Position numbers and translations under genes: made by a program
Shown: positions 1 through 64,000 of the stretch, one piece after another
Layout: each line of letters opens with the position of its first letter
How positions within the stretch are numbered: the stretch's first letter is position 1
Notes under the pieces: generated by a model
What the model was told of the DNA's origin: nothing
The model's input: the letters and a program-made list of their open reading frames with translations, nothing else
Database searches by the model: none
Source: Cyanidioschyzon merolae
Lineage: Eukaryota
DNA length: 64,000 bases
Strand: one strand, 5' to 3'
NCBI GenBank assembly: GCA_000091205.1
Contig: AP006502.2

Positions 1-304
1 TCTCTATATCTGCGGCTATGCGCGTGAATGTTTTCGTGTAGCCAACTCGATGCAAACGCTCCAAGCCTTGGGCTTTGTGCGCCGCTCGCCTCCATCACAA
101 GCCCACACCTTCCACAGTCGCATCTCGCGCTAGAAAGCCCGAAACTTCATGAAAGGACTACGGTCGCGCTTCGTCGTCTGTACCGTGACGTGCGCTTGCG
201 CATCTGCGGCTCGCCATGTATGGGTTTTTTCGATGACAAAACGTTTAGATTGACCATGGATCCCAGAATTCGGGATGGATAATGGCTTTCGGGCAGAGCC
301 TCCA

Positions 305-510
305 AGATGAAGCACCTACCTTCAAGCTCCATTACCCATACCTCCTCTCGGATATACTGGTCGCTTCGTATGTTCTATAGTGCACCGAGTGCCTGTTTTG
401 AGCACCCGCCTTGACGCTTATACCGCTAAAGCAGATGCCGCACGGAGACAGAACGGCTTTGCCATACCACTGAGGGCGTCGGCTCGAGCGGAGGCGCCAT
501 GTACGTGTGC
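305..510. repeat. dispersed ~200-bp repeat, copy 1 (homologous to 11805-11975)
   Basis: Direct nucleotide alignment with copy 2. The shared blocks are …cccatacctcctctcggatatactggtcgcttcgtatgttctatagtg… and …gacagaacggctttgccataccactgagggcgtcggctcgagcggaggcgcc…. Confidence 0.7.
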
Positions 511-569
511 TGCACCTTCACGCGACACCATGCGTAAACCACGACGCTGGCATAGCGGAACCCAGCGTC

Positions 570-1742
570 TCATGATCCACGCTTCTCCCGCTCGCTTCTG
601 CTGACGTTGCCTCTGGTCGACGTTTCCGTCGACGCGTTCAGGGGCCATTTGGTAAGGCGCATCGTACGCGAGGGCAGTACCCGAACGAGCTCCGCCCGAC
701 GCTTCATGCCCGCTGGGATCGCTAACGCTCGCTCTTCAATATCTCGCGTTACCAGTTCAATCAATTCATGTTTCTTTGGCTTCTTGCCGCCTATGACTTT
801 GCCCAGACGTAACGCTCTTCGCTCTGCACGACATTGTTGTATAAGCTGGTCCATTTCTTTCATCCGCTCAGCGATGAGCGCCTGACGAAACGCTCTCTCT
901 CTTTCCCATTTGTGGCCTTTGCGAAGGTAACGGAGATACATCTCCGCACCAATTTCCTCTAAAGTAGCGACAGATACCGTTTTCGTTCGCGATGACGGCT
1001 CCGACTTCGCCAGCGACTCGGTGTGGATCACGACTCCAAGTTTCTTCCGCGGGATGTCGAAGGGCCACGGAACGCCGCGAAGTAGACACTGACGCCGCAG
1101 GTATGCTCGCTGTCTCGCGGTGACTTTTGGCGGACGCCAGACAACCCGGGTGTTGCTCGTTAGGGCGTCAGTCAGACCACCGACTCGCAACGAGTCCGGC
1201 TGCGCAGAATCGTCCAGCAACCGAGCTTGACGCCATAGCGCTTCCCGCTCTGTCAGTGGTCGTTCTATCACCTGAGGAAGCATACCCGGCGGCAAGCGCT
1301 TTTTTGCCGCCTCAACCGCTTTCACGTTCACTGGCAGCAGTCGGCGGCTGGCATGCGGATGACTCGCAGGCAGCGTTGTGAGCGCAAACAGCTTCCCTGC
1401 AACAACGTCCGCACTGCCGGGCTCCTTCACACCGGCAGCACTTGAGCGTGCTCTCCGGACCAGCAGTCCCCAGACTCGCCCCACGCCTCCCAACATGAAA
1501 CTGACGGCGACTCGCGAGAGTCTGGCGTGGTTTAAGCAGCTGATAGAGAGGCGGAGCGCTGCTTGCTGTAGAGGCGACGCCCGGTGCGCTCGACGGTCGC
1601 AGGGCGACGCATCCATTATACGCGGCTGGGATAGCGGCTTTGGAACGCTGAGATACGTTGACGTTGCAGTTGCGACGACACCTTGAGCCTCATCCTGGCA
1701 CGATGTGTAACGTTCTCTTGTTATGAAGAGAGGTCCGAGCAT
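570..1742 (-). CDS. hypothetical basic protein (possibly an organellar ribosomal-type protein); true start probably an internal ATG
   Basis: 390-aa ORF on the minus strand. Lys/Arg-rich C-terminal half (…LRYLRKGHKWERERAFRQALIAERMKEMDQLIQQ…). It is divergent from the YbeY gene and the two ORFs overlap at their 5' ends, so the listed start is suspect. No firm family match is recognised. Confidence 0.4.
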   Translation of the reverse strand: MLGPLFITRERYTSCQDEAQGVVATATSTYLSVPKPLSQPRIMDASPCDRRAHRASPLQQAALRLSISCLNHARLSRVAVSFMLGGVGRVWGLLVRRARSSAAGVKEPGSADVVAGKLFALTTLPASHPHASRRLLPVNVKAVEAAKKRLPPGMLPQVIERPLTEREALWRQARLLDDSAQPDSLRVGGLTDALTSNTRVVWRPPKVTARQRAYLRRQCLLRGVPWPFDIPRKKLGVVIHTESLAKSEPSSRTKTVSVATLEEIGAEMYLRYLRKGHKWERERAFRQALIAERMKEMDQLIQQCRAERRALRLGKVIGGKKPKKHELIELVTRDIEERALAIPAGMKRRAELVRVLPSRTMRLTKWPLNASTETSTRGNVSRSEREKRGS

Positions 1743-2700
1743 GTTCGTTGGAGCCGTTTTCGGACCGGCGCCGTGTCGTGTCGGTGGACGGTGCAGCTGG
1801 AGTCCGCGATTTAGCCGGGAAGCACAGGAAGTGCAGTTCCCGTGTAGTTTTTCGTCTGGAGTAGCAAAGTGTAGTCCAAACTCATCGTATTACTCAAAAA
1901 CGGCTGAAAAAAGTGCACTTTGGAGGAATGACGCACAGCAACGTGCTTTTGCACGCTGTCTCGCGGACGCCGAACATCGCAGCATCGCTCCTAGGGTGCG
2001 GCGCCAAGCGCGGAGGCCGCGGTTACGAGTGCTGGCGTCGCCCTCGGAGGACCTCTCTCTGGCGCCTGCTGCACTGGAAAGCGTCTTGTCCTGGTGTCGA
2101 AGGGACGCGCGGGATGCCCTACGGGCGGCACTCGCGGTCACGCTGCCGTCGCTGGCGCCGCTATCAGCGAAGGCGGCAACAGCGTGCCCGCAAACGCCGG
2201 AGTTGCACCAGGGACAAAGGCAAGCACTGAGCAGCGGTGTAGTAGGCTCGACTCAGGATTCTTTAGATTCCGAAAGACGCTTCATAGCGCCATTGGAGAA
2301 GGTTTTTATGCAGGAACCAGTCCCGTCGCAAATTGAGTTATCGATTTACCTCTGCACCGACGCGCACATCCAGCTCTTGAACAAGCACTATCGCTCCGTG
2401 GACGCACCGACAGATGTGCTGAGCTTTCCGCAACAACAACTCCGGATACTTGGCGATGTTGTGATTTCGTTAGACACTGCGCAACGGCAGGCGGGCGGAC
2501 GCTTGCGCGATGAGCTACGAACCCTGCTGCTTCATGGCATTCTGCACTTACTGGGATTCGATCACGAAATCGATGAACAGCATCATATCCTTTTTGCGCG
2601 AGCAGAGGAACGGATCACGCAAATGCTCGAGTGGCGTGGCAGGGGCCTCATTGCGATGATCAGCGAACGCGACGACCACGAATCGCACGACGGCCCCTGA
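1723..2700 (+). CDS. ybeY: YbeY-family endoribonuclease (UPF0054) with N-terminal extension, probably organelle-targeted
   Basis: The C-terminal ~150 aa carry the YbeY signature: …VLSFPQQ…, the H3xH5xH zinc motif HGILHLLGFDH, and EIDEQHHILFARAEERI. The ATG at 1723 was checked; the alternative ATG at 1741 avoids overlap with the divergent gene. Confidence 0.75.
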   Translation: MKRGPSMFVGAVFGPAPCRVGGRCSWSPRFSREAQEVQFPCSFSSGVAKCSPNSSYYSKTAEKSALWRNDAQQRAFARCLADAEHRSIAPRVRRQARRPRLRVLASPSEDLSLAPAALESVLSWCRRDARDALRAALAVTLPSLAPLSAKAATACPQTPELHQGQRQALSSGVVGSTQDSLDSERRFIAPLEKVFMQEPVPSQIELSIYLCTDAHIQLLNKHYRSVDAPTDVLSFPQQQLRILGDVVISLDTAQRQAGGRLRDELRTLLLHGILHLLGFDHEIDEQHHILFARAEERITQMLEWRGRGLIAMISERDDHESHDGP

Positions 2701-2720
2701 TGATGATGATGATGATGATG
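2698..2720. repeat. (TGA/ATG)7 trinucleotide microsatellite immediately after the YbeY stop codon
   Basis: The sequence tgatgatgatgatgatgatgatg is seen directly. Confidence 0.9.
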
Positions 2721-3666
2721 AAGGAAGCGCTGATCAACGTTGCGGTTAGAGACGCTACAGACGACGATGCACGCTGGCTACGGACTGGTAACGCCAGCGT
2801 ACAAGGATATGGAGAAGGTGGCCGGTAGCGTCGAGTTGATGCAAAGATCGAATTTACGGCACCGGTTACCAAGCTGCAGACAGAACTCATCCGGTCGACA
2901 GGCGCCCGCTGTGTGGACGCCTGCTCGGCTGTGGCGAGGCCGTCGTTTCGCCTTACGACGTTCGCTGCATTCTCAGCGCGGGGATTTTCGCTCAAGTTAT
3001 CCGGACTCGGTTCTGTTGGAGCATCCTGCACTCGGACTAGAACATGGCTGCGTTCGTGAAAGCAGCGTGAGGTTGCAGGGCCCCGCGACCCGCTGACCTT
3101 CGCGCATCCGACCGACGTTGGTCATATCAGGCGATGTTGCACCCCGCAACTTGTTTCGGGGTAGTGTCGGGAAACACTTGACGCCGGCATGCCCAGCACT
3201 GTTGCATGCGATTCGGGTCGGGATGCGAGGAGAGCTCTTGTGGCGACTTATCCAGTAATCGCAACAGACCGGATCATTTAGGCCATATAAACGTAATGAT
3301 GACGTCGACCGTTGCACAGGGTCATCTGCTCGGGCCTGGATCATGTCGCTCTGCATCGGCAGAATTTCTGCCTCGATCCGCACAACCGATCCAGAGGTAT
3401 CTGCACCGCGGTACTGCGTCCTCGATGGATTGCCCCGTGGGCTGCGTCGACCTGAGCGCTCGTCCTCCGAGGCGTTTGCAGATTACAGGACATATCAAGC
3501 GATACGCATTTGTGCAGTTCACGTTCGTGGGACGAGAACGCAGGCACTGTATGTACAGACAGATGCACACAAAGCGTATCGCTCCCGTTATGGTACCTGG
3601 AATGATGCGGTGCCTGACAGAGCCCAGGCCCGCAAAGATCGAAATCGCTGTGCGGACGTTATTTTT

Positions 3667-3687
3667 CATCATCATCATCATCATCAT
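3667..3687. repeat. (CAT)7 microsatellite, reverse complement of the (ATG)7 tract ~950 bp upstream
   Basis: The sequence catcatcatcatcatcatcat is seen directly. It gives poly-H or poly-M runs in the spurious ORFs that overlap it. Confidence 0.9.
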
Positions 3688-3885
3688 CAATGCGGCATGC
3701 GTCACGTCGCTGCCCCGGATCTGCGAGCACGCCATCCCCGAATCCACCAGCTTCTTCTGGGTGCGAGACCCCGATTCTACTGCTTACGCAATGCGGAGCA
3801 TTCACGCCTATCAAATCGCCATCGCCGCCGCGATCAACAGGAGAAGTGCTGCTCCTGTCCCTCCGGTGTGCTAAGCGCGATGAAC

Positions 3886-5652
3886 TCAGCCATTAGCATC
3901 CTGTTCAATGCGAAGCGCTACCATCGCCTGGTTTGCTTCTGTGTCTCCCGTCGATTGCAGCAATCGGCGTCGCTTGCGGTAGTACCAGAGCCCGAACCAG
4001 AGCGCAACACTTGTGACCAGGAGTGGAACCATAATGAACAAAAGGACATTTGCGTGCTTCCGTATAAAGATGCCTATACTGCCGAAGAGCGTCGTTTCGC
4101 TGCGGTGTCCGCTTGGCGCGGATGATCGAGGTTCGTCTTGATCGCTTGTTGACCCGGAGCCCGTCGGGTGTGTGGTCGTGAAAGGGATGCATCCGCGAGC
4201 CGACTGAAACCCTATCCGTTTGTGTGCTCGATCATACACAGTGAAAAAGTTGCGCAGCCACACGAGACCTAATATCGCTTCGACACCATAGCTGGGCCCG
4301 AGGGACGGCTCCTCCGCGATCCCCATGCAGTAAAATGTTGGTTCTGGTGGATTATCTACCCGAACGAAATACTGTAGCGGAGTCAGCGTCAAGTTCCCAG
4401 CGCCAGCTAGCGTGAATGTTAGGTTGGGAAACTGTCGGACTTCCTCTGGAGAATACGATGCGCACGCAGCGTGATCCAGTATACTCGGTTCTTGGGCATT
4501 ATCCGGACACACATACGGAATATGGCAGTAGTGCGCACGAAGGTAGTCTCGGAACGCCGCAAACGCTCCTGTTGAAAGGGCGATGAGCGTCGTGCCCGAG
4601 TCCACGAATGCGCTGTGCCGATTGGCAATGCCCGCATCGTGTCCATCGATATACACATGCTCTAGCTCTATATCATAAAAAAGATGGTGCACAATTGGCG
4701 TCCACCGGATCTCCATCGGATCCATACGAGAATCCATAGCGCCAAGTACAAGACGCCCTTGCTCGTCGCTCACACAGAGACTGAACACATCTTCAGGGAC
4801 GAGTCGGTGCTGCAAGAGCGTTTCGAAAAACGGTAGCGTGCACAGCGGGTTGCATGACAGCCCCGGATACGCCAGGCCGAGCATCCCTTCAATGCCGCTG
4901 CCGAATACATCGGGACTGCGTCCCTGCGCTGACTCGATACCACCGAATACCATGGGCGCCGCACGGCCCGCTGCACCGACCATTCCCGCAACATAGCGGC
5001 CGTTGAAAGCAGTACCGTCCCCGTAACGGATCTGATAGATGCAATGTCCACGTCCGTCACAGATACCATGCTGATCAGGTTCACAGGAAAAGGTCTCGGG
5101 CGGATCGCCCAGCGGCGCTGTGCGGCTTCCGCAGTGCAGCGTGCGATCCTCGTCGACTTGCAGCCGCCGCTTGCCCGCCGGGCAAGCATCGCACACGCTC
5201 GTGATAACTGCTAACGAGGACGAGCCGGTATCCACTGAAAGGGTGTACGGGGATCCATCAATTTCGATTGTTGTTGCATACATACCGATGTGTACGAGTG
5301 AGCCATAGAGAGGCAGTTCTATTGGCGAGATCTGGGCATGGAGGGCGGCGTTCCCGTTGGGTTCTAGTGCAAGCGGCCGCGACTTGCTGATCGGGACACG
5401 ATAACTGCTGTTCCGTAATTGAAACAACGTTCGCACGTGCATGTGTTGAGCATGAGTAGAAGCACTCTGTCCGCGGATCGTATCCCAGGTCAAAGCTCGT
5501 CGCTGTACGCGTTTCAGCGCGCACACGCGCTTTATGCGGTAAGCGCCTATGCTGCCGATCAGGGCCCCGAGGAAAAACAGCGTTAGCACGAACCCCAGCC
5601 ATGCTGCGCTTGTTCGAATCGTTCGACGCCGCAACTCAGAAGCTCTGTGCAT
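3886..5652 (-). CDS. membrane-anchored pepsin-like (A1 family) aspartic protease
   Basis: Both catalytic motifs are present: LSVDTGSSSLAV and AFVDSGTTLIAL. There is an N-terminal hydrophobic anchor (LGFVLTLFFLGALIGSIGAY) and a C-terminal TM segment (VLLFIMVPLLVTSVALWFGLWYY). The ORF is open up to 5994 but begins with GTG; in-frame ATGs lie at 5799 and 5652 (checked as cat on the + strand). Confidence 0.8.
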   Translation of the reverse strand: MHRASELRRRTIRTSAAWLGFVLTLFFLGALIGSIGAYRIKRVCALKRVQRRALTWDTIRGQSASTHAQHMHVRTLFQLRNSSYRVPISKSRPLALEPNGNAALHAQISPIELPLYGSLVHIGMYATTIEIDGSPYTLSVDTGSSSLAVITSVCDACPAGKRRLQVDEDRTLHCGSRTAPLGDPPETFSCEPDQHGICDGRGHCIYQIRYGDGTAFNGRYVAGMVGAAGRAAPMVFGGIESAQGRSPDVFGSGIEGMLGLAYPGLSCNPLCTLPFFETLLQHRLVPEDVFSLCVSDEQGRLVLGAMDSRMDPMEIRWTPIVHHLFYDIELEHVYIDGHDAGIANRHSAFVDSGTTLIALSTGAFAAFRDYLRAHYCHIPYVCPDNAQEPSILDHAACASYSPEEVRQFPNLTFTLAGAGNLTLTPLQYFVRVDNPPEPTFYCMGIAEEPSLGPSYGVEAILGLVWLRNFFTVYDRAHKRIGFQSARGCIPFTTTHPTGSGSTSDQDEPRSSAPSGHRSETTLFGSIGIFIRKHANVLLFIMVPLLVTSVALWFGLWYYRKRRRLLQSTGDTEANQAMVALRIEQDANG

Positions 5653-6504
5653 CGAAAGAAAAAAAGTGCGGCACGAGTGCGAGGTCCCTCGACACACTCC
5701 ACTCTGGTGTTTCGTGCGGCCTGCGTCTGGACGCTGTACGCCACACTGCACTCGATTTGTGCGCTGCGCGATGGGTACAACGCGAGTCCCTGAGAACATG
5801 TAGATCTCTAGACAAATTTGGAAATAGCCCTTGGACGACACAAATCGATGCGTGCGTGCGTTCTGATGGCAAGCACGCTTACCAACGGGACTTACACTTG
5901 CCACGTGCAGGTAGCCAGAAAGATGGGAGTGGCATTTCGGGGCGGATAAACGCCTGCACTCGACCACTAGTCTTTTCGTTGTTAGCGACTGCACTCGCCT
6001 AGCTGAATGACTGTGATTGGTCTCATCGACCGTTCACCAGAAAACTTGCAAGCAGCTGCAGACAACAGGCGGCACCCTGCGTACTTGCACCGAGCGACAG
6101 CATCGCTGGATCGAGGTCGCTTCGCTTTATGAGAACAAAACTGCTCCGGATCTGGTGCAGCATAGAAATGCATCTAGAGGAACGGCAATCTCCGTCCTTG
6201 TTCCTATTCGCATATGCGGATGGAGGAAAATCTGGGTCGATGCATCGGCTTTTCATCATACGAGAGCGTCGACGCATGCCTATGAATAAACTGTCTCCCT
6301 AGAGACCGTCTCTGCATTCGGCGTGGATACGCATGCAGCACAAGCCCAACGAGTAACGGATATTTACGATGCCCATGCAGTATCCGCGGTTTTCCAGCTT
6401 CACCGCTCGCCCCCCGGACGCAAGCACTAGCGTTGGTCACGTTCAGGCACGCATGATGCAGAGCGAGTAGCGCGTGTACTGAACTGCCATATATCCATCG
6501 TTGT

Positions 6505-9387
6505 TCAATACGTGCAATTGCGTCTGCAACGATGCACACAATCCGCGATCCATTGGGTAAAGTCGCGAGCTTCCAGTAAGGTTTCAATGAAATATGGCAT
6601 GCGCCATCGCCAGCTGCCCTCTTCATAACTGCGACCTGGATAATTGATTTGATCCTTCCGGGGATCAGCGCTTCGGAGAGAACGCCAACAATCCGTGTAG
6701 TCCTGCAGCGGGAGAATAGTCCACATCGATCCCGCGCCGAGATGCTGCTCCACAATCTTCTGACTCATCCATTCGGTGCAGTCCCAGGGCGGGGAACCGC
6801 CCTGTTCACCAAAGAATGACCAAAACATTTCGTGCGCTCGACCCCGATCCTCTTGCCACCACGCGCGCACCGTACTGCAATCGTGGCAGCTTGTCGAAGC
6901 TACGGTAAGGTACGTGTAGGCAGCTGGGGCGCCAAACTTGCCGATACCAGGCCAGCGTTGGATACGCAGGCCCAATATCCCGAGCTCTTCGAGAACCGCA
7001 TAGACCTCGGGTGGCACCATGCCGAGGTCCTCGGCGCAAATCATCATATTCGCCGAGGACTGGAGCGCGCGCAGGTTTCGCAGCCCACACGCACGCCAGT
7101 TCTGCCGGCGAAAGAAGTACTGCTCCCAGACTTGATCTAGGAGTTCCTTGTTCGCAAAGCGCTGATACGACGGCGTCGATTTCATATGGCAGGTCGGAAA
7201 GAAGGCATCGGGACCGGCACCATCGTCGTGAATGAGACACTGGTTCGCTATCAGCGACTGAAGAACTCGAAAGGTGCGCAAACGTGCCTGCTGCTCCGCA
7301 GCCGGTAGCGCGTGCCAAGCGGTGCGATCCTCGCCCGCGATGAGCAGATAGCGCGCGATGGCATCGTCCGTAGCGAGGTGCTTTTTGAAGGTCAACACAT
7401 GGCCGCCTTCGTGTACATCGAAGAACGTGTCCACGATCCGCTGCGATTCGGCGCCGAAACGCTCATCGATCAACCAGCGACGCAGATGCGGTGTGCACAA
7501 GCGGTAATATTCCGAGAGGATCGACCTGATCTCGTGCCGGTGTATGGGACTGGATGGTTCAAAACGCCCCAAGAGCCCCGAATAATTGTGACACGGAATG
7601 GACCAGGCTCGAAACAGACCGAGCACGTGGTCGATACGGAAAGCCTGAAAATACTGTGACATGTGTTGCAGGCGCTGGCGCCACCATCGGTAACCATCAC
7701 GCTCCATCTCATCCCAACGATACACTGGAAAGTCCCAGTTCTGCGCGGATGACATATCGAGCGCTGGAGCTCCGATCGAGCGATCCATACGGAAATACTC
7801 CGGATGTTGCCAGGTGTCCGCCGAGTCCCGAGTTACACCGATCGGAAGATCGCCCTTAAGGATAACTCCACGCATCTTGGCGTAGTCCGAGACACTTTTG
7901 AGTTGAAGATGCAGGTGATACTGAATGAAATAAATCAGCTGGACGCGATCATATGCAGGCGAAGACGGACTGGTCAGCGCAGCCACGAGGGACTGGTCGT
8001 TGCCGCGCTCGGGCCACTTATCGGACGGGAGCCGCTTCATGCCTCCAGCGGGTGCGTGCTTCTCCCGAAGAACCTTGTAGAGCGCATACGAGGTCAACCA
8101 GCTAGTGTTTTCTTTGAACCATACGTCAAAGTCTGGGTTCTGTAAACAGGCGCTACCACCGCTGGATTCATAAACCATCTCGAGAAAACGTAACTTCATT
8201 TCCAATACCTCCGGATACGCCACCTCATAATTCGCGTTCAGGCGTTCTCCATCTTTCACCAGCTCTTGCTGTAGCTTTGCCCTATTCGCAGGGCTGATCG
8301 TCGTCATCGCATCCAGAAGCCACTTCAGGTTCATATAAATCGGATGTATCGCGTGGACAGAAAGTGCCGAGTAAGGCGAAGGCTCCTCGCCGGTATCATG
8401 AATTGGCAGAAGCTGTACAAGTTTCAGGGACGCAGCAGCAACCCAGTCGATGAAGAGCTTCAGGTCGCCGAAATCACCTGCGCCTGCGGAATGACGCGAG
8501 CGCAACGAGATCAGCGGGATCGCGACACCCGCGCCCTTCCACACGGTCGCGTACCGGAAAACGTCATCGACATGAATGAAGCGCGTTTCCGGACAACGCT
8601 GCGGTATTCGAAGCGTGCGATTCGAGCCCTGCTCAGCGCAGATCAAGTTCGGTGGCTCCTGATCTTTCGCGATCACGTAACGGTATTCAAAGGGAATCGC
8701 TGCAACCGGAATCGAGACCATGCTTGCGTAGAGACACGAGCCGATCGGGAACATGGGAATCTGTTTCATGGGATTCCAGGCGCCGAGCGCTTCGGGAGAT
8801 CCCGTCACAAACACCTGATGACCAGCTTCCAAACGAGGTACATAGGACACGAAGCGAACTCGAATGACCGCTTGCGTAGACGTCGGTTCCTGGTGTGCCC
8901 AGCGCATGCGTGCCGCCGCTGCAGTATCCAGTTGCAACCAGGAAGTCGTTTTGGGCACGTTCAACTTTCGAAAAATCACATCCACAAAAGCAGAAGTTGC
9001 AAATACGGAGCTTTGTGCGACACGCCAAGAGTCGTAACAGTAGAGGTGTACGACGCCGGTGCCGGCCTGCTGGAACAGCGTCTCGTCAACGAGCACAGAG
9101 CGAATCGCCTGCGTCGCCTCCATGCGTTGCGAGTCCGCCGCTCCACTTCCAGATACGACAACGTACTTATAGTCGATGCTCACGGGCGTAGAAGCATCCT
9201 CAAGCACCAGGTCACGATCTCGGTCGAAGCACACGGAAGCGTGCCAGTTTCCCTCACCGATCGGATGCAGTGGCAGAGCTCGCGACACATCGCCTCCACC
9301 GAGTAGAGGGTGCGATCCAACAGCAACCAGGTATGCGTCCCCTCTTGTGACGTAGTTTATATGCAGATGAAGCTCTAAGCCCGGCAT
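6505..9387 (-). CDS. DPE2: 4-alpha-glucanotransferase (GH77, DPE2-like disproportionating enzyme) with N-terminal CBM20 starch-binding modules
   Basis: 960-aa ORF whose ATG was verified. Conserved GH77 blocks are present (YSALSVHAIHPIYMNL, DLPIGVTRDSADTW, RIDHVLGLFRAWSIP, MMICAEDLGMVPPEV). The N-terminal Trp-rich repeats are typical of CBM20. Confidence 0.9.
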   Translation of the reverse strand: MPGLELHLHINYVTRGDAYLVAVGSHPLLGGGDVSRALPLHPIGEGNWHASVCFDRDRDLVLEDASTPVSIDYKYVVVSGSGAADSQRMEATQAIRSVLVDETLFQQAGTGVVHLYCYDSWRVAQSSVFATSAFVDVIFRKLNVPKTTSWLQLDTAAAARMRWAHQEPTSTQAVIRVRFVSYVPRLEAGHQVFVTGSPEALGAWNPMKQIPMFPIGSCLYASMVSIPVAAIPFEYRYVIAKDQEPPNLICAEQGSNRTLRIPQRCPETRFIHVDDVFRYATVWKGAGVAIPLISLRSRHSAGAGDFGDLKLFIDWVAAASLKLVQLLPIHDTGEEPSPYSALSVHAIHPIYMNLKWLLDAMTTISPANRAKLQQELVKDGERLNANYEVAYPEVLEMKLRFLEMVYESSGGSACLQNPDFDVWFKENTSWLTSYALYKVLREKHAPAGGMKRLPSDKWPERGNDQSLVAALTSPSSPAYDRVQLIYFIQYHLHLQLKSVSDYAKMRGVILKGDLPIGVTRDSADTWQHPEYFRMDRSIGAPALDMSSAQNWDFPVYRWDEMERDGYRWWRQRLQHMSQYFQAFRIDHVLGLFRAWSIPCHNYSGLLGRFEPSSPIHRHEIRSILSEYYRLCTPHLRRWLIDERFGAESQRIVDTFFDVHEGGHVLTFKKHLATDDAIARYLLIAGEDRTAWHALPAAEQQARLRTFRVLQSLIANQCLIHDDGAGPDAFFPTCHMKSTPSYQRFANKELLDQVWEQYFFRRQNWRACGLRNLRALQSSANMMICAEDLGMVPPEVYAVLEELGILGLRIQRWPGIGKFGAPAAYTYLTVASTSCHDCSTVRAWWQEDRGRAHEMFWSFFGEQGGSPPWDCTEWMSQKIVEQHLGAGSMWTILPLQDYTDCWRSLRSADPRKDQINYPGRSYEEGSWRWRMPYFIETLLEARDFTQWIADCVHRCRRNCTY

Positions 9388-9678
9388 CTGTGAGCGTTGA
9401 GTACTGTCTCCCGCTGGGGAACCCGATAAACGCCCAGCCGGACGTCGCGTTCTCGGGCACGTGTCGCATCGCCTGCATCAGCGCGCTTCTGGTTTTCCAT
9501 TTGGACGACGCCGACGTGGTCAGCGGCTTCGGGGTACAGGCTCGCTCTGTGGAAGAAGGAGCACTCGTCTGCCATTGGCTCGTGATTACAACCAGGCTAC
9601 TAGTGGTGCAACTTGTGTAAATGGCTGCCTGAGCTACTGTCGTTCGAAGGTCTTCAACCGCCTTACGAAGGTTTTGTG

Positions 9679-10701
9679 ATGCAGCAAACCTCGGGCACGA
9701 CTGCCGCGGTACGTGCACTCGGCGCCAACGGCGGCAGCAGCACCGACGCTGTCGATACCACAGAAACGCTCGAACGCAAGTGCGTCGTGTGTCAGTCAAC
9801 CGAAGAGGTGCGTGTTTTTAGTGCAAACTGTGAGCGTTTATGTGTGCCGTGTTTCGTGGAACGTTTTGAGCGCTCCTTCCGGTACGCAGTGCAACGCTGG
9901 TCTATGCTCTCGCACGGAGAGCGCGTTGCTGTTGCGTTGTCCGGAGGTCCAGCCTCGCTTGCGCTTCTTGAGCTTTTGCACGGACTTCGGCGGGGGTTTG
10001 CGCATCACAAGGGTAAGATACGACCCAAGCACTTTGAAATTGTCGTTTTCCATGTTATCGTGCCAGCGGGGTATGGGGGCAATGGGGCCAGCGGCGCTGC
10101 CGCTCTCCAGGCGCTTGTACAGGAGCGCTATGGGCTGACTGTCCACACCGTTGATGAAGCACTGTTTCTTGCCCGCGCAGATGCGCTAGAAATGAGTACT
10201 CGGGATCCGATGGCAACGAATCACCAGCTAGACGTGCTGGATCCGACCATTGCGCCCGCGCTCGTTGCAGGCATTGTAAACGCTCTGCTGGAGCGGATGG
10301 CGGAAGCATACGAGTGCAAGAAACTATTCCTGGGCACAACGGTTACCCGAGCTGCGATCATAACCATCGCACGAGTAGCGACCGGGAATCCGCTACGTCT
10401 TGACGCCGAGATCGGAGTAGACTACCACTCGTCGACCGCAGGCTGCCAGGGATCGGCATACGCCTCAAGTGGTCCTCTTCGCTGGCTCCGCCCGTTGCGA
10501 AATATTTCTCTTCGCGACGTCATTCGATATCTTCGCGCTCGTGGCTGCACTGCGTGGATTACTCCAGCTGAGCCATGGGCACAGGAAAACATAGAAAGCA
10601 CTGCCGAGCGCTTCATATGGCGAGCTCTCGAAACGCGACCTGCAACTTCATTTTCCGTTGTGCATAGCATAGAGCGAGCTTTGAATCTAAGTGCCGACTA
10701 G
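9679..10701 (+). CDS. CTU2: cytoplasmic tRNA 2-thiolation protein 2 (CTU2/NCS2-like, degenerate PP-loop)
   Basis: The N-terminus has a CxxC…CxxCF zinc motif followed by a degenerate PP-loop, ALSGGPASLALLELL. This pattern matches CTU2 rather than TilS/CTU1. The listed ORF start at 9613 is TTG; the first in-frame ATG is at 9679. Confidence 0.55.
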   Translation: MQQTSGTTAAVRALGANGGSSTDAVDTTETLERKCVVCQSTEEVRVFSANCERLCVPCFVERFERSFRYAVQRWSMLSHGERVAVALSGGPASLALLELLHGLRRGFAHHKGKIRPKHFEIVVFHVIVPAGYGGNGASGAAALQALVQERYGLTVHTVDEALFLARADALEMSTRDPMATNHQLDVLDPTIAPALVAGIVNALLERMAEAYECKKLFLGTTVTRAAIITIARVATGNPLRLDAEIGVDYHSSTAGCQGSAYASSGPLRWLRPLRNISLRDVIRYLRARGCTAWITPAEPWAQENIESTAERFIWRALETRPATSFSVVHSIERALNLSAD

Positions 10702-11804
10702 TTTGGTCAGCGACCCTGCATGAGAGTCACACTGCTGCGAAGGGTGTTCTTTTTTGGACGAATATTTCCTCTGTTCTGTGGGTTCGGATGCGACGAGCGA
10801 GCTAATCAAGCACGCGATCGACGTACCGCATGCGAACAAAATGAACTGTTTCTTCATCGGGATGTAGTATACCGGAGAGCGCAAGTTTCTGTATTGGTGG
10901 TATCCTTCATACCGATGAGAGCATCGCCACCAGGGCGCCATTTGGGGCATCTGGATGATGCAAGGCTTCCAGGGTCGTTCCGAATTGCACGTGACTTTCC
11001 CATGGACTTGATGTCCGGAGCACGGTTTTAGCGCAATGTCCTGCACACGCTGGCAGCTGAGCTTCAACGTATCGATCCGGTATTGCAAGCAGGCCCAGTC
11101 GCAGAAAGCACGCCAAGGCTGGAACCGCTGCGCATGGAGCTATTCGCACCCTCTAACCGCTTCCCTCCAGGTATGATGCAGCCATTGGTACGAGGTCTTT
11201 CCAGGAACATTTCGCAGAAAGGCCCGGTCAACCGCATCACACGTGCCGGCCGCTCAGACGCGCGCGGGTACCTTCGCAGGCAATTTTGTCCCAGTTTGCA
11301 AGTCGCCAGCACAAGTGACCCCAAAGACAGCAGCTTCCCTATACTCGCTGTCACAGTGGCTTCTCCATGGTAAAACCCGTGGTTTGGCACGCAAGTTCCT
11401 CGGTAGCAGAGCATCTCAGTCTTTGAAAGCGGGTCTATCGCCGCGTTTGCAGTACGATCGCAACCACAAGAGCATCCAACGCAACACGCAAAAATCAGAA
11501 CGCTCGAAGCGATCCCACAACTCGAGCACGCACCTGCAGCTGCACCATGCCGAATCTGGACAGTGCTCGCATACCTGCACGCACAGAGCTGATACTGCAA
11601 TCCCGCCTTAAATTGACCCTATCTAACCGTTCGAGCTGAACCGAGTATGAGCTGTCCATAGGGAGCACGCATGCCGACACGTGTACGTCCTGGGCAGCAG
11701 CACAGATTTTTTCATTGACAAAACATTTACTTTGGCCAGCGTTCTCCGATTATGCGCATTTTTCTTTTATTTCTTCATGTTTTTTTTTCAGTGCGCGGTG
11801 AAGT

Positions 11805-11975
11805 ATCCATCAAACACCCTGCCTCCAAGTTATATGACCCATACTTCTTCTCGGATATTCTGGTCGTTTCATACGTCCTATCGTGTGTGCCTAGTGCCTG
11901 CCGAAGGCGACAGAACGGCTTTTCTGTACCACACAGAGGGCGTCGGCTCAAGGGGCAGCACCGATGCATGCGCGC
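11805..11975. repeat. dispersed ~200-bp repeat, copy 2 (about a 40-bp deletion relative to copy 1), ~150 bp upstream of the CCT-alpha ATG
   Basis: The shared blocks here read …cccatacttcttctcggatattctggtcgtttcatacgtcctatcgtg… and …gacagaacggcttttctgtaccacacagagggcgtcggctcaaggggcagcacc…. It is in the same orientation as copy 1. Confidence 0.7.
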
Positions 11976-12128
11976 CCGGCGCGCGCGGCTCGACGAGCAC
12001 CGCCGAATCGCTCGGATGCCGTCTCCTGGACGCTTTCGCGGCAGGGCGACGCGTGTCAAGTGCGCAGCGTTCTGTGCGCGCGTTGCGACAAGCGCTTCAA
12101 GCGCTGATCAGAGAGCTCGCTTAGAAGC

Positions 12129-24130: not shown

Positions 24131-24660
24131 CTACATCCGAGGTCGGTGCGCGGATCGACCCATGCCTCGCTCCGCTTCCATTTCATTCATCGATTCTGCG
24201 ATTACGACGATAGCGTGTATGTCGATAAACCGACCTGCAGACGCTTCGCAACCTGTTTTGACCGGTTGCATGGTATCGATTTCAGCTTCTCCTCGTAGAC
24301 TTCGACCCGGAGAGGCTGCCCCATGAAGTTTGCTCGCGCCATCTCCGCAGGTGTCGTCCTCTGCTCCGTAAAACGTCTGATATTTATTGCAGCATTGACG
24401 TCTCGATTCACGAACTCCATGCGTTTTTTTGCATCTGGTCGAACTCACCTATGCAAGGATAGCGGAAACTCGCGCCACCTGTCTCGTCTTCGTCCTGATG
24501 ACGACGTACTTTTCTCACCTATGTTTGCTCTTCTTCTTAGATCCATGGTCGGCGAGAAGAGGATTATTTCCGTTACTTCTTCCAGCCGACGACACCGAGC
24601 CTCCAGACTCCTCTACCTAGATGTCCATCACTTTCCTGTTTTAATTCCAAAACGAACCCA
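24131..24660 (-). mobile_element. 5'-truncated fragment A of a Fanzor/TnpB-like (RuvC-fold, OMEGA-family) transposon-encoded nuclease gene. It keeps RuvC-III and the C-terminal tail.
   Basis: The minus-strand ORF 24202..24420 encodes KKRMEFVNRDVNAAINIRRFTEQ…NFMGQPLRVEVYEEKL. The nucleotide block tgatatttattgcagcattgacgtctcgattcacgaa (24377-24413) aligns with the copies at 34781-34817 and 60888-60924. Upstream homology runs to about 24650, then is lost. Confidence 0.6.
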
Positions 24661-26394
24661 CGTGGAGCGCTTCTGTTATAAACCGCTAAAAAGCACTTGA
24701 ATACGCTCACATGTGGGTTGAAACACAAACGAACGTAAAATCTATCATTTGCTCTGACTTCAACGCAAAAACATCGTGTACGTTCGAGCAGTACGCTAAT
24801 GAACAGGATCGTGTTTCCCCGCGACGGCGAGATGCACGTCCTCTCTCATGCCTGCCAGATATGGAGGTGCGCGTATCGAGTGCGCTATATAGAAAAAAGA
24901 ACAGAAACGAACCAGTAATTAGCACGAAATATCGATTTCTTTCCTCCTCAGAGCCAAGCGTTAAACGGGGAAAATTGTCCATGTTGCCAAGAGTTTATCT
25001 TATAGGCGGCAAGTCCCGCGACCTGGACGCTTCTGTCGGGCCGGTGATTCATGCTCCCACCAGTGGCGGGTGCAGTGGCGAGATCTGCGCAGCTCGTCCG
25101 CAACGCCGTTTATTCGGGGATTAGGGGCAGATCGGCAGCGTCTGCGCATCGCCCTGGTCGCTGTGGACTCCTAGTATGTCGTTTCGGGTTACTGCAGACA
25201 GTAGGTCTGTCTGCGAAGCTGACAGGCTCCCAGCATGAGGATGGACGCCAACTCCACGTCAGGTGAAGCATTCCGCGATCCGACACCCTCAGTGGTGAGG
25301 CGAAGCCGTTCCATCCCCGTGTGATGCATCCGCATCAGCGGTTGAGACGTTGCGGCGGGTGCCTCACACAGGTACTCGGCGCACGATAGAACGTACCATA
25401 CGACCAGTGCATCCGAAAGGAAGCATCCATGATGGAACATGGAGCTAGAGTGAAGAGCATTGAGCGTTATCATTTATTTCCATGCATATCCCGCGACCTG
25501 GGATCTCCATCGTCGACGCATGCGTTTTTCCAACGGAACATCGATTCGCAGCATCTATGTGGACTTTGCTATCCATAAATCAACAACTATGGGCAGCATC
25601 GAGAGCCGCCCCCGTGGACGCGCAGCGGTGCGTCAGCGTCGTCGTCACCGAAATCAGCGGAGGATCCAGCGCGGCTCCGCCCAGATACATCCCCCGAAAC
25701 CTGCCAGGGACGCGTCGATCCTGAGCACCAGTGCCTCTTCAGGGCGCGTTGCTATCTGGTAGACGTCGGTGCCAGTTCGCACGAGCCTTCTGGAAGCACG
25801 CTTATCCGTACACCGAATATACGGGAAGCCGGTGGCGGATGTATACGCGCTTCTTCCTGTGTGGCAACAGGCTTCACTGACACACGGGCGCTGTGTGGAA
25901 CGAGGATCAACAGCGGCGGCGGCAGGGTGTGTGACTAGCGCACCGCTGCCAGCAGCAGCTTTTCCTGCAGCCGCTCGGCAGTGGGGTCCTAATTGGGGTA
26001 TCGCTAAGCAGCGCTTTCCAGGAATCTCTGAATCGACGATCATATTTCTGTCGCTCCCGAACGTTCGCGAAGCAACCCGAGCACGTAGCGGCCGCAACGA
26101 GCGCAGAAGCGCAAGCGGCAGCTTTTTGACAGATTTCGGGACCTCTGCGTCGGTTGTGCGCCGTACATAGGTCGTCATTAAGTATTACGTGTGACAGAAA
26201 AGTCAACTTTAGAGGTGAAAAACCTCCAAACGACACAGACACACACAGACAGACGTCGAAGCACTGTTAAGACTGGTGTCTTCACTTGGCGGACTGGGCT
26301 CCCGAGTGAAACATCGGGTAACAGCCAATTTTTCACGGACACAAGTGCACGACACTCTTAACCGCTGCGACTTGGACCAGTGTTGCGACCGTAA

Positions 26395-34579: not shown

Positions 34580-35012
34580 ACACGTCAACAGAAGGATAAA
34601 TGTTTCAAAACCATGACGAGTAAATCTATATACCCATGCGCTGACGCCTCCCGGAACTTTTTGACCAGCCGCCTGCTATCGGTCTCAGTTTCTCCTTGGA
34701 CACTTCGAGACTTCGAGGCTGTCCGAGAACGTTCACCTGCGTCAGCTCCGCGGGTCTTTTCATGAGCTCGGCACATCGTCTGATATTGATGGCGGCATTA
34801 AGGTCTCGGTTCGAAAAGCCCATGCGCCTATCGCCTCTGCTTGAAGTCACCCAGGCAGGGATTCCCAGAACTCGTGCCCGCCGTTCCATTTGATGCTCTG
34901 TCAGCGCTCCCTGCTTTTCTATCGCCGAAACGCTTCGCTGCCTTTTCTCCATATCGACCTTCTGAAATCTACATCTCAGCTCATCCCTTAATTTCTCTTA
35001 AATGAACGCACT
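34580..35012 (-). mobile_element. 5'-truncated fragment B of the same Fanzor/TnpB-like element family (RuvC-III plus tail)
   Basis: The minus ORF 34626..34952 encodes DELRCRFQKVDMEKRQRS…LTEHQMERRARVLG…RMGFSNRDLNAAINIRRCAEL…NVLGQPRSLEVSKEKL. This is colinear with copy C (HELGCTLQRVEMEKCQRS…LTEERMERRAKFRG…RMEFRNRDFNAAINIR). The nucleotide block 34781-34817 matches A and C. Homology ends at an in-frame TAA near 35010. Confidence 0.6.
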
Positions 35013-60508: not shown

Positions 60509-60739
60509 TTTCGCTGCAGACAGCGGAATCCAGTTGCACAGGTCGCTCACGAGCAGAGGGACCCTGTTCGTGAGGAATGGCGCGCCCAAGTGCCGGCGCC
60601 CGAGCAGACGCTGACGAGGCGGTGATCCCAGCGGCTTTGCCAGCTGGCACCAGCAACAAGAAACGCCTTTCAAAAGAAAAACGTTGTCGTCGGTGGTGTA
60701 CAGTAGTGGCGACCAGCGCCCTAGACAAGAAGTCTCTAA

Positions 60740-62900
60740 CTAACGTGCAGACGCCTCCCTCTCTTTTTGGACCGGCCACCTACTGCTACTTCCAATTTTT
60801 TCTCATATGATTCAACCTTAAGAGGTTGGCCCACAAAATTCTCTATTGTCACCTCCGGAGGTCTCTGATCCATCACCGCGCATCACCTAATGTTGATTGC
60901 GGCGTTAAAATCTCGGTTTCGAAACTCCATCCGTTTCTTTCCATTGATTGTACTTACTAATGCAAGCAGTCCTCGAAATTTTGCTCTCCTTTCCATTCGC
61001 TCTTCTGTCAGCGGTCCGTACTTTGCTCTGTTCTCAGGGCTCCTCTGGCACTTTTCCATCTCCACTCTCTGAAGTGTACACCCCAGCTCATGGTAGGTAT
61101 ACAACGTTCGAAACTCATCTACAGGTATCGTAGCGAAACGCCGTGCACACTCCTTGTACGCTCTCGTCGTTGGAGCTGGCGTGGTCGCTTTCTTGGGCGC
61201 CTAGCGCCCTGCTCCGTATGCCACTACGAGCCTCTGACTTTCATTCTACTCGAGGGCGCTCAACTGGCTGAAAAAGATCGCGAATGCATGCTGCTTCCCA
61301 CAGTATAGATGCATTCGCAGAGGAGCCCACCGGGACTTTGTATACTCTTTCCGCAGCGCCTCCCAATATGCAACACGAACTTTCATGAATTTCCGAAAAG
61401 CTTCAAATTCCGCTCCTCGGCTAGTCACCTCGCTCAAAAATTCCAGGTGCTCTTTCAATCCTGCATTCCACGTCTCAATTTTCTTCCTTGCGTTTATCAT
61501 ACCGGATTCTCGATAGTATCTCGCTCTCGAGAATCTCAACAGACGCATGTCCTTCTGACGTAAGTTGCCGTCGTTACCATCTTCCCCACGCTTCGGTGCT
61601 GTGATGGTGATGATATTTGTGTGGCCGGGGTCCGCGCCAACGATAAAATCGTTCTCATGCACTTTCTGCATCGCAGGATTCGCCTCCTTCTCATCTTCAT
61701 GCTTCGTCACGGCCGCAGCCGAAGGCGGAACTGGACGATCTGCCTGCAACCGCCGATAGTGAACACACTTGGATACTTCATTAGTTTCGATCACCCCCAG
61801 TAAATACCTTTTGTTTGCTGATTTTGAGACGTTTGAAATCGAAGATATTCCCCCAGTACGTCTCCCGGTTTTCGCCGGAGAATTCCCCCCTGCTAACACT
61901 GAACTCGGGACTGATCTCCTTCATGATGCCAGGAAGGACGCCGGAGTCGATAGTCACGAAATGTGACTTGATATTGCACAACGAAACCACGTTGAAGCGC
62001 TTCCCCATTAGGACAGCCTTCCGTCTCTCCCACTCTTCATTTGTCTCTTCACTCAACTTCATTTCCGCCTTGCGTTCGAGCTCTCGGTCCAGAAACACGA
62101 AATAGCGCAGGACGAGGCAATAGTATCTTTCCTTCTCTTTTTTCAACGCTAATATCTTGTCTGTTGGATTTGCCAGCCCCAGTACGGCACGGTGCTCTCG
62201 TATAACCGCACGGATTAGAGAAGCTTCATTCGTGCTCCTGCGTGATGTCTTCTCTCCGACGAATTCGATCTGATCTTCATGCTTGCGATCGTTCGTGATG
62301 CCATTGATAATCGCCCATTTTCCATTGCGAGAGATGCTCGGGTAGAGCGCAAACACGGCGCGTATCATGAAACGTTCGAGGTTTACGATCAGATGGTTCT
62401 TAGGGTTCGCGGGGTACTTTTTTTACACCGTATTCGTAAATGCGCCAGTCACTCCTGTATCGAGCACAGCTGAAGGGTATTCAACCTAACTTTCGTGGAG
62501 GCGTGCACGAGGTCATTCCTCCTTGACGTTTCCCCTGTGTCAAACATCAGGTGACGAATAGAGGTCCTGGTGAAAAATTCTTCCCGATCTTCGACTCTTT
62601 TGAGGTCTGTTACGTCTTCGTACAGCTCTTTCTCCAAATGCATCAGTCCTGAGGAAGCGTTACAGACGCTGCTGGAGTACGTCTCGATACGGTTTCTGAT
62701 GGCCTCTTGCAACTTTAGCTCGTACGCCTCTTTGGTATGCTGAGAATGTCTCCTGGGCTTATGCTTCACGCTCTCCCCAGTGGCAGGTGCTTTAGAAAGA
62801 TCTGGGCAGCAACACGTCCGCAACGCAATTCATTCTGCGACTAGGGGCAGTTAACCCGCGTCCGGGCGTCGCTCTAGTCGCAGTGGACTTCTATAACAAC
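60740..62900 (-). mobile_element. near-full-length but pseudogenized Fanzor/TnpB-like (OMEGA-family, RuvC-fold RNA-guided nuclease homologue) gene of a eukaryotic transposon. It spans about 690 codons across at least 3 reading frames and carries 3 in-frame stops in the C-terminal half.
   Basis: RuvC-I is ENDFIVGADPGHTNIITI (ORF 61246..61899). The conserved block RAYKECARRFATIPVDEFRTLYTYHELGC matches the TnpB Y-K-x-x-x-G…V-D-x-x-Y-T-S-x-x-C zinc-finger region. RuvC-III is RMEFRNRDFNAAINIR at 60886-60930, followed by a TGA stop and then a still-conserved tail (ENFVGQPLKVESYEKKL). In-frame TAG stops lie between the blocks (…SALE*NESQRLVVAYGAGR*APKK…). The upstream ORFs 61781..62368 and 62449..62823 are in other frames. 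Confidence 0.65.
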
Positions 62901-64000
62901 GCTTCGCGTTGTTGTGGGCAGTAATTCTATCAGCACAATTTGCTAGTTCCTGGAATGATTATGCGCCCGACCCCTTCTCAGATGAAGCATTCCTCGTTCC
63001 GACGCCCTCATTGACACAGTAAAAGCCGTTCTGTCTCCGTGATGCATCTGCACCAGCGGTATAACTGCTACTGCGGGTGCAGCCAGGCAAGCACTCGGCA
63101 CACGAGAGAATACACGAAACAACCAGTACATCCGAAAGAAAGCATAACTAATGGAACCTGGAGGTACGTTGCAGCATGACGGATGATTTTTCCATTCCGA
63201 ATGCCCATCCATGCCGCAATCCGGCATCCACGGTCGATGGAAACGTTCTGTCATCGGAAAACAAAACTCAGCTACAGCGTGTCGGGTACCGGGCATCCCC
63301 GTACGGCCAGCAGCGGGGCTTCCGACGCTGCAGGGGGCGCGATCGTCGTCGCGTTCCCGCGAATCCCCGATGAAAGGCGCGAGGCCACCTCAGCCGCCAA
63401 TTGACATCCAGCGGATGATGCGCGACGGCGGCACTAGGGGATCGTTTCTTGAACATTTTCAAGCCACTGGGCGCCAGCGACGGGAACGCTAGGCGAAGCA
63501 CTCGTAGGCGCTTGTTGAATCGGTGCGTCTTGGGTGAACGGCGCATACTTGCAGGTAATCGGACTGCACAGAGAGCGCAAGACGCTTGGACTCGAGCAGC
63601 AGCATCGAGGCACGTTTCTCCAGCTGTGTCGAAGAACGGGGTTCGACGGGGCGTTTGAGGCTCACTGCTGCACGCCCACTATTTTATTTGATTGCGCTGT
63701 TTCCATAAAAGTTGCTTTTGGCACAGCGTTGGGTGTCGGCGAGCACCAGAAGAGGGCTTTCGTCGAGATAGAAGCGGGGCTATTAGCGAGCTCGTGAAGT
63801 TTGCGCGTTCAGTTCGCGACGCGGGCGACGTTGCCTCGCCATGGTGTCCAACCTTCTACCTGTGCCTGCTCCGAGCCAGGCACACGCACCATCGATGCAT
63901 CTTACTTTAATGGAGCGGTTCTGGCGCGTTTGCTTTCTCGTTCGATGTTTCTTCAACAGCGTAAGAGAGCGAGGATTATACACCACATCGCGGGTACGGC

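Follow-up and report, generated by a model that had tools for sequence, protein, structure and literature searches.

The window analysed here, a 64,000-nucleotide stretch of Cyanidioschyzon merolae contig AP006502.2, contains at least five pieces of one dispersed C. merolae transposable element family, published as CMe-1A/TE-N2_CMe. Two of them, copies A and B, lie in the same orientation about 11.5 kb apart. Copy A is located 66 bp past the stop codon (at 570) of a minus-strand gene encoding an mL59-like mitoribosomal protein. Copy B ends 175 bp before the ATG (12129) of the CCT-alpha gene; an earlier note on this DNA had correctly placed one copy 3' of a gene and the other about 150 bp upstream of CCT-alpha. 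The CCT-alpha protein encoded in the window is identical to BAM83196.1/XP_005539232.1 of C. merolae 10D, so the host is the one from which CMe-1A was described. The CMe-1A consensus (3,169 bp, supplementary file 2 of PMC3627910) served as the reference, and consensus coordinates carry the prefix c. The pieces and their flanking duplications are the following:

212..220: left target-site duplication of A, CGCCATGTA; with 2 mismatches it is 13 nt long and reaches the T-run
225..494, plus strand: copy A; T-run at 225-230, CMe-1A c1-255 at 231-488, then six bases
495..503: right target-site duplication of A, CGCCATGTA; the exact 9-mer repeated (null p about 0.01)
11697..11706: left target-site duplication of B, GCAGCACAGA; adjoins the T-run, nine of ten bases equal to 11955-11964
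11707..11954, plus strand: copy B; T-run at 11707-11712, then CMe-1A about c1-258; subfamily 2
11955..11964: right target-site duplication of B, GCAGCACCGA
24197..25538, minus strand: copy C; internally deleted CMe-1A with c1-967 (25535 to 24567), c2801-3093 (24515 to 24228) and about 31 nt more
24188-24196 and 25539-25547: 9-bp target-site duplication of C, CATCGATTC on the plus strand
34640..34984, minus strand: fragment E; solo 3' piece, c2737-3084
60664..63266, minus strand: copy D; nearly full-length CMe-1A with c1-499 (63256 to 62748) and c1089-3169 (62739 to 60664)
60724-62739: Fanzor1 pseudogene in D, without the first 61 codons and split over three frames

The homology of A and B was reproduced by alignment. 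The global alignment of 225-494 with 11707-11954 displayed 76% identity over 222 aligned bases, and the repeat search returned three blocks of 68 nt (79%), 27 nt (85%) and 31 nt (81%). The local alignment score was 66.7, compared with 10.2 +/- 1.4 for shuffled sequences; the similarity is therefore far above chance. The earlier note had estimated about 80% over about 200 bp. Its starts of 305 and 11805 were misplaced, the true starts (225 and 11707) being about 80 bp further 5'. The deletion of about 40 bp that it described inside the second copy was recovered as about 46 nt present in A and missing from B, and a T-rich insertion of about 25-30 nt in B relative to A had been overlooked. The repeat had also been considered to be present twice in an otherwise repeat-poor region. 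Two more copies on the minus strand (25535 to 24197 and 63266 to 60664) and a 3' fragment (34640-34984) were detected, bringing the family to five pieces in 64 kb.

Comparison with the consensus by blastn identified A as c1-255 (87% over 258 bp, E = 5e-74), and B matched c60-166 at 78% and c209-256 at 82%. Profile HMMs separated A and B into different subfamilies. B belongs to a divergent subfamily 2, which displays the T-rich insertion near c47-60, and has lost about 46 nt around c167-208 through a deletion private to it; the subfamily-2 HMM matched it at 11709-11955 with E = 1.9e-60. No extension of A or B beyond c255 was found, and both subfamily HMMs stopped at 488 and 11955. A and B each represent only the first 255-260 bp or so of the consensus, at the far end from the Fanzor gene. 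By blastn, C matched the consensus over 975 bp (78%) and 294 bp (68%), D at 77% (c1-499) and 86% over 2,084 bp (c1089-3169), and E at 70% over 348 bp; tblastn additionally placed the Fanzor1 C-terminus in E at 57%. A, B, C and D are thereby at about the level of similarity published for CMe-1A members (about 80%).

The ORF of the consensus (c906-3110) encodes a Fanzor1 of 734 aa and is carried by D and L088. In D, the main segments of Fanzor1, in frames -2, -1, -2 and -3, share 65-82% amino acid identity with the consensus protein (tblastn). The assignment to Fanzor1 follows from the published consensus together with the RuvC motif NRDxNAAxN, present in the Fanzor1 of the element, and a weak match (E = 0.08) to SpuFz1 as the best solved structure; Pfam returned no match for the element ORF. 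No transposase ORF was found in the CMe-1A consensus, which encodes Fanzor1 only. An antisense LINE-like ORF was also looked for in the consensus and rejected, no antisense ORF exceeding 197 codons.

CMe-1A was described as the Fanzor1 element of C. merolae, with a consensus of 3,169 bp and about 150 copies, and its relative TE-N2_CMe (635 bp) with about 70 copies (Bao and Jurka, 2013, Mob DNA 4:12; PMC3627910). These authors reported that CMe-1A lacks inverted terminal repeats, that its target-site duplications could not be determined and that its class was left unclassified; Fanzor1 elements were treated as riding in DNA transposons, and CMe-1A was said to keep intact ORFs (PMC3627910). A 3.2-kb interspersed element with 253 copies, accounting for about 5% of the C. 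merolae genome and carrying an ORF weakly similar to WSV486 of WSSV, was reported by Nozaki et al. (2007, BMC Biol 5:28; PMC1955436). CMe-1A is very probably this repeat. The two are equated by description, as the Nozaki paper gives no sequence: genome, size and dispersal are the same, and the WSV486-like ORF fits the white spot syndrome virus Fanzor1 in the list of Bao and Jurka (PMC3627910). The copies analyzed here agree with CMe-1A/TE-N2_CMe in host, in the length classes of about 3.2 kb and 635 bp, in the Fanzor1 ORF and in the lack of inverted terminal repeats. The repeat is thus an already known, published transposable element family, and the increment over the literature is the end structure of its short copies. 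They differ from the account of Bao and Jurka in showing, beside a T-run, variable duplications of 8-15 bp. Nor does that account mention the subfamily with the T-rich insertion or a class of about 255-270 bp (A, B, L031, L109 and L024).

Beyond the window, a pattern scan and nhmmer returned 56 matches in related metagenome contigs, which represent 28 distinct copies. The copies point either way, and their placement with respect to genes is arbitrary. A search for insertion polymorphism that would supply empty sites found none, the same insertions being present in all metagenome strains. Six copies (L027, L053, L098, L116, L121 and L048) end at c636 and correspond to the TE-N2_CMe class, that is, the first 635 bp or so. 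This end was fixed by flanking duplications in three of the four copies tested (L027, L116 and L098), and L053 has a candidate duplication of at most 6 bp.

The short copies share a sharp end at c1, which is preceded by 2-9 T-rich bases, and their opposite ends vary (c256-272, c534, about c615-641 and about c3125). Target-site duplications of variable length (8-15 bp) bracket short copies, A, B and C among them. Nine of the 20 testable distinct copies scored at least 8, compared with 4.2% of mismatched flank pairs (binomial tail 4.6e-8), and perfect duplications were found in L027 (13/13), L031 (14/14), L050 (12/12) and L068 (13/13). For B, an exact 8-mer, GGGCAGCA, provides an alternative duplication (p = 0.04). 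In the nine clearest cases, the 5' copy of the duplication adjoins the T-run or lies at most 4 nt away. Wherever the duplication is clear, a T-run of 2-9 nt separates it from c1; the run is nearly constant at about 6 nt and possibly templated. The four longest copies (D, L088, L028 and L020) were searched as well, and none had a target-site duplication; D, whose flanks yielded none, carries a run of T-rich sequence at 63257-63266. On the opposite strand, c1-60 reads ...AACGTTTTGTCATCG(A)n.

Two other origins of these structures were rejected. Splicing does not account for the internal deletions, with no GT..AG at the junctions in either orientation. The 255-bp unit is not an empty target site of the Fanzor element either, as the sequence following c255 in the solo copies differs from the 3' flank of the full-length copies.

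Since A and B each have their own T-run and their own duplication of host sequence, they are separate insertions and not products of a segmental duplication. Taken overall, we are confident that insertion of CMe-1A/TE-N2_CMe members at two sites best explains A and B, whatever the mechanism. The common orientation and the 11.5-kb spacing had left room for a local segmental duplication, and the earlier note had named two copies inside a larger duplicated segment as the finding that would overturn its reading. This origin has virtually no probability left and is refuted: the homology stops at the element boundaries, the flanks are unrelated, each copy has a different duplication, A and B come from different subfamilies and dozens of copies exist elsewhere. 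Each copy having its own target-site duplication also means that each arrived by insertion, which argues against a cis-regulatory module shared between genes and recruited beside them as a promoter or terminator. The positions of A beyond the mitoribosomal protein gene and of B before CCT-alpha would suit such a role, and the interval from 11782 through the end of B to 12057 is identical in three strains; however, fewer than two SNPs are expected in 256 bp at 0.7% divergence, so that zero SNPs are uninformative. The orientations and gene-relative positions of the copies are arbitrary, and the unit is conserved no better than the rest of the element (identity to the consensus 79% for c1-255 and 78% for c256-636), which speaks against extra constraint on c1-255. 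We consider the regulatory module, as suggested in the note, very improbable. The SNP density between strains in the long copies C and D was 2-4 times that of their flanks, again with no sign of constraint, a comparison for which A and B are of insufficient length. A scan of A for bacterial-type promoters and terminators returned no sites. A hidden short protein, in the frame reading ..FLSDxLVVSYVLSC.. in six-frame translations, was dismissed, as stops and frame shifts differ between the copies.

A family of small non-coding RNA genes, for example Fanzor guide (omega) RNAs as stand-alone copies, is slightly more improbable still. It is true that Fanzor/TnpB systems have a guide RNA gene at a transposon end (PMC10432273), and the 255-bp unit has a sharp boundary and an 8+4-bp hairpin paired in 79% of cells. 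However, the omega RNA is encoded at the right end, where it overlaps the 3' end of the ORF or follows it, and the guide runs past the element boundary (PMC10432273). The unit c1-255 occupies the other end, 650 bp before the start of the Fanzor1 ORF, the 3' end of which is at c3110. A guide RNA of CMe-1A would be expected at about c2950-3190. The covariance-model search that the note had proposed connected the repeat with no RNA family: Rfam 15 gave nothing at the gathering score over the whole window and no match to the unit at E<=10, a cutoff at which A and C gave nothing or chance-level matches (those over C). ARAGORN found no tRNA. RNAalifold, applied to four and then 28 copies on both strands, detected almost no conserved fold (28 copies: -5.06 kcal/mol and 8 pairs on the plus strand, 0 kcal/mol and 0 pairs on the minus strand). 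The hairpin, defined by hand at c168-205, is inherited from the consensus and wholly lost in B. Its covariation is marginal, as 4 of 500 shuffles reached the observed score, which is within the stated false-positive range of the tool for related sequences. A and B resemble the Fanzor omega-RNA modules and SpuFz1 'ghost' loci (Saito et al., 2023; PMC10432273) in that short non-coding derivatives outnumber or accompany coding copies. In the ghost loci, both inverted repeats are preserved together with the guide RNA region of the right end, while A and B keep the left end only and have neither inverted repeats nor a conserved fold. A and B are most likely inert relics, to judge from a sequence with no coding capacity and no RNA structure signal; B may have been exapted as part of the CCT-alpha upstream region.

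The mechanism of insertion is a separate matter. A and B could be remnants of a DNA transposon, that is, one-sided truncations or deletion derivatives from cut-and-paste or gap repair, with duplications made by a putative transposase. The filing of Fanzor1 carriers as riding in DNA transposons, with CMe-1A itself unclassified (PMC3627910), would favor this, as would the internal deletions of C and D with both ends kept, as in non-autonomous DNA elements, the recurrent breakpoints at c255-272 and the nearly constant T-run. Against it, terminal inverted repeats are absent (repeat search; PMC3627910), the consensus has no transposase ORF and the short copies keep one element end only. DDE transposases produce target-site duplications of fixed length, and those found here range over 8-15 bp. 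We regard this origin as rather unlikely. The repeat search found no terminal inverted repeats between the ends of A or B, as the note had observed. Like miniature inverted-repeat elements (MITEs), A and B are short, non-coding, dispersed, gene-adjacent and flanked by duplications, but they have neither terminal inverted repeats nor a fixed duplication length and retain one parent end only. A SINE/MITE-like element was the closest of the four proposals of the note, as the segments have target-site duplications and are short insertions of transposable element origin that do not code for protein. It was only partly right, since the hallmarks of MITEs are missing, the family was already published and the segments correspond to a single end of a 3.2-kb element encoding Fanzor1. 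Its solo terminal repeat, in the LTR sense, does not hold, the sequence being found at one end only of the full element.

Target-primed reverse transcription by LINE enzymes leaves an A-tail, 5' truncation and duplications of variable length. For L1-like enzymes, poly(A) on the RNA is sufficient. The sharp c1 end with its T-run, the variable far ends and the 8-15-bp duplications suggest retroposition of this type for the short copies, to which we give about an even chance. The RNA would be antisense to the Fanzor gene; viewed on the opposite strand, each insertion would be an RNA-derived copy ending in a short A-tail and truncated on its 5' side. The broader proposal, that LINE-type copying of a transcript antisense to Fanzor1 spreads the CMe-1A/TE-N2_CMe family, or at any rate its short forms, is more tentative, somewhat short of even. 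Reverse transcriptase might be supplied by the 26 non-LTR retrotransposons of C. merolae, three of which have an intact enzyme (PMC1955436). Like LINE-dependent retroposons (SINEs, SVA and processed pseudogenes), the short copies display variable duplications, a possible A-rich tail adjoining the duplication (on the opposite strand), a fixed 3' end, variable 5' ends and no coding capacity, in a host with non-LTR elements that have an intact reverse transcriptase. They differ in the short tail (2-9 nt), in their clustered 5' ends and in the absence of a tRNA, 7SL or 5S head, and the longest CMe-1A members carry an antisense protein gene. Several observations speak against retroposition. The far ends cluster at c256-272 and c636 and are not random, the short and fairly constant T-run of about 6 nt could be templated and not a poly(A) tail, the longest copies (D, L088, L028 and L020) have no duplications, and no pol III or tRNA-, 7SL- or 5S-derived head was found by ARAGORN or Rfam. 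An RNA antisense to the Fanzor ORF would also be unexpected in an element whose ORFs are described as remaining intact (PMC3627910).

The genome is very poor in repeats apart from one abundant transposable element family, known from papers of 2007 and 2013, and the repeat is debris of that family. If LINE-type retroposition is true, the gene of the Fanzor RNA-guided nuclease would be located within a retroposon or next to one, and not in a DNA transposon, and the perfect 12-14-bp duplications on copies diverged by about 20% would reflect many long-lived source copies and not old insertions. If a genome-wide census confirms the end structure, a family whose class has been 'unknown' since 2013 would gain one. 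Confirmation would link a Fanzor nuclease gene to RNA-mediated spread, which bears on how eukaryotic RNA-guided nucleases propagate.

Repeat finding on positions 1-13000 recovered the same-orientation blocks 315-382 with 11818-11885 (79%), 444-470 with 11906-11932 (85%) and 468-498 with 11932-11962 (81%), as well as a 5' block missing from the earlier note, 225-267 with 11707-11749 (74%). Global alignment of 225-494 (copy A) with 11707-11954 (copy B) gave 76% identity over 222 aligned bases, and their local score was 66.7 compared with 10.2 ± 1.4 for shuffles. These blocks and scores indicate that the repeat is real, although its 5' limits had been placed about 80 bp too short. The internal deletion attributed to the second copy was borne out, B lacking about 46 nt present in A, and B carried a T-rich insertion absent from A. 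Sensitive blastn of A and B against the window identified two further minus-strand copies, near 25276-25538 and 62993-63261, confirmed by nhmmer with a four-copy profile (E-values 1e-53 to 1e-83). Therefore, the statements that the repeat is present twice and that the region is otherwise repeat-poor were wrong. A weak partial likeness to the profile at 17512-17626 (+) (nhmmer E=0.24; blastn E=0.009) is probably due to chance.

The copies were compared by blastn with the consensus of CMe-1A, the Fanzor1 element of C. merolae, as printed in supplementary file 2 of Bao and Jurka (2013; PMC3627910). Positions in this consensus are prefixed with c.

225-494 (+): copy A, c1-255, 87%
11707-11954 (+): copy B, c60-166 and c209-256, 78-82%
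24197-25538 (-): copy C, c1-967 and c2801-3093
60664-63266 (-): copy D, c1-499 and c1089-3169 at 86%, nearly full-length without c500-1088
34640-34984 (-): fragment E, c2737-3084, solo, 70% DNA identity and as protein 57% identical to the C-terminus of Fanzor1

The Fanzor1 pseudogene in D is frameshifted across three reading frames and truncated at its N-terminus. The c3169 end of D lies at most 10 bp from the upstream end (60673) of ORF 57515-60673, which encodes a prolyl-oligopeptidase-family protein. CMe-1A was described with about 150 copies, each about 80% identical to the 3-kb consensus, and its first 635 bp equal TE-N2_CMe, a second element of about 70 copies; neither had inverted terminal repeats, and for both the target-site duplications were not determined and the class was unknown (PMC3627910). 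A transcribed 3.2-kb interspersed element of 253 copies, about 5% of the C. merolae genome, had been reported previously (Nozaki et al., 2007; PMC1955436). The consensus match and these descriptions show that the family was already known; the earlier note had rightly recognised a dispersed repeat, which belongs to a published transposable-element family.

A single scan of the metagenome collection with a pattern matched by all four copies, followed by nhmmer, gave 56 hits, which clustered into 28 distinct copies. Copies aligned with their flanks shared the sharp boundary TTTTTT-CGATGACAAAAC, and in most of them homology ran on past the 3' limit in the earlier note. By pairwise extension, the copies fell into discrete classes with lengths of about 270, 520-660, 900-970, 1,130, 1,700 and about 3,000-3,100 bp. 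The CMe-1A length classes recurred across the fetched loci, six copies ending at c636 as TE-N2_CMe. Profile HMMs of both subfamilies stopped at 488 (A) and 11955 (B), thus A and B truly end near c256-259. A breakpoint at c255-272 recurred in six distinct copies of both subfamilies (window 488 and 11955; metagenome loci L024, L031 and L109; L008, as c255 joined to c789), a clustering too tight for random truncation. In the long copies, the encoded protein (about 700 aa) contains a RuvC-III-like motif, NRDxNAAxN; it had no match in Pfam, and its best solved-structure relative was the Spizellomyces Fanzor SpuFz1, weakly (E=0.08). A divergent short family (c~789-1037 plus c~2840-3093; L008, L009, L018, L053, L123, L125) suggests a second non-autonomous derivative keeping the 3' end of the ORF.

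The CCT-alpha protein (12129-13850) was identical to BAM83196.1/XP_005539232.1 of C. merolae 10D and was also encoded on metagenome contigs in JGI and ENA assemblies. In one of these loci (L003:1-1925, JGI 3300050370 contig), B is replaced by a low-GC gene similar to a GalNAc-transferase carrying a ricin-lectin domain, the join falling 45 nt before the CCT-alpha ATG; this chimeric junction is an assembly artefact and not an empty site of B. Spurious long ORFs run through the repeat copies:

11681-12124 (+): spurious ORF
11752-12192 (+): spurious ORF
25189-25473 (-): spurious ORF
62943-63296 (-): spurious ORF

Some such ORFs were annotated as genes by prokaryotic callers on metagenome contigs (e.g., L001 9538-9996). 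Elsewhere, a (TGA)8 run (2698-2722) and a (TCA)8 run (3665-3689), 942 nt apart and within or beside ORFs, form a perfect 25-nt inverted pair.

The small ncRNA family proposed in the earlier note found no support, Rfam giving no matches even at E<=10, and no tRNA was found. RNAalifold on the 28 distinct copies predicted 8 pairs (-5 kcal/mol) on the plus strand and 0 pairs on the minus strand. At an imperfect palindrome (c168-205), 79% of cells were paired and covariation was marginal (observed score reached by 4 of 500 shuffles); the palindrome is deleted in B. The c1-255 segment was conserved to the same degree (79%, leaving out the bases of the metagenome scan pattern) as c256-636 (78%). Differences between 10D and the metagenome strains amounted to 1.1-1.7% in C and D and to 0.4-0.5% in the sequence flanking them; A and B are too short for this comparison. 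Guide RNAs known from Fanzors map to the right end, beyond the ORF (PMC10432273), opposite to the end represented by A and B. At c3111-3169 (window ~60664-60723, -), a GC-rich hairpin, GCCGCCA...TGGCGGC, follows the Fanzor1 stop codon and precedes a T-run, and four full-length copies (L008, L009, L088, L125) have 3' flanking sequences that are alike over about 17-30 nt. The arrangement in other Fanzors would, by analogy, place a guide RNA here; alternatively, the published consensus may be slightly short.

Duplications flank several short copies:

212-220 and 495-503: A, CGCCATGTA
11697-11706 and 11955-11964: B, GCAGCAC(A/C)GA
24188-24196 and 25539-25547: C, CATCGATTC
L027: 13 bp, perfect
L068: 13 bp, perfect
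L116: 13 bp, one mismatch
L031: 14 bp
L109: 15 bp, one mismatch
L050: 12 bp

A duplication score of at least 8 occurred in 9 of the 20 testable distinct copies versus 4.2% of mismatched flank pairs (binomial tail 4.6e-8). In copies with duplications, a T-rich run of 2-9 nt separates the duplication from c1, and inserts differ in their far ends (c256-272, c534, about c615-641, about c3125). The duplication end beside the T-run is often ...CGATG, ...TCGAT or ...GTGAT(G), resembling the element's first bases, CGATGAC (window 212-230 and 25539-25547; L027, L050, L068, L098, L109, L116), which could reflect junction microhomology or target preference. Perfect duplications, of 12-14 bp in L027, L031, L050 and L068 and also present at A and C in the window, surround inserts about 20% diverged from the consensus, indicating that most divergence arose before insertion, among source copies, and not by later decay.

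Target-primed reverse transcription is recognised by a fixed end with a tail, a variable opposite end and variable-length duplications. On the opposite strand, the fixed end with its short T-run, the variable far end and the variable duplications would fit this process, and the candidate LINE enzymes would be the host's own non-LTR retrotransposons, of which C. merolae has 26, three with intact reverse transcriptase (Nozaki et al., 2007; PMC1955436). On these grounds, we consider the chances about even that an RNA antisense to the Fanzor gene gave rise to the short copies, A and B among them, by retro-copying. The main rival is a DNA-level mechanism. Against retro-copying, the tail is short and of near-constant length, the far ends are clustered, and the four longest copies had no duplication even with 600-nt search windows. 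Furthermore, no pol III head was found on the copies, no antisense ORF of >197 codons in the consensus and no splice signals at the deletion junctions.

The best reading of A and B is as short, inert insertions of the published family, each retaining one end. The T-run and the target-site duplications add a little to what could be determined in 2013 (PMC3627910).
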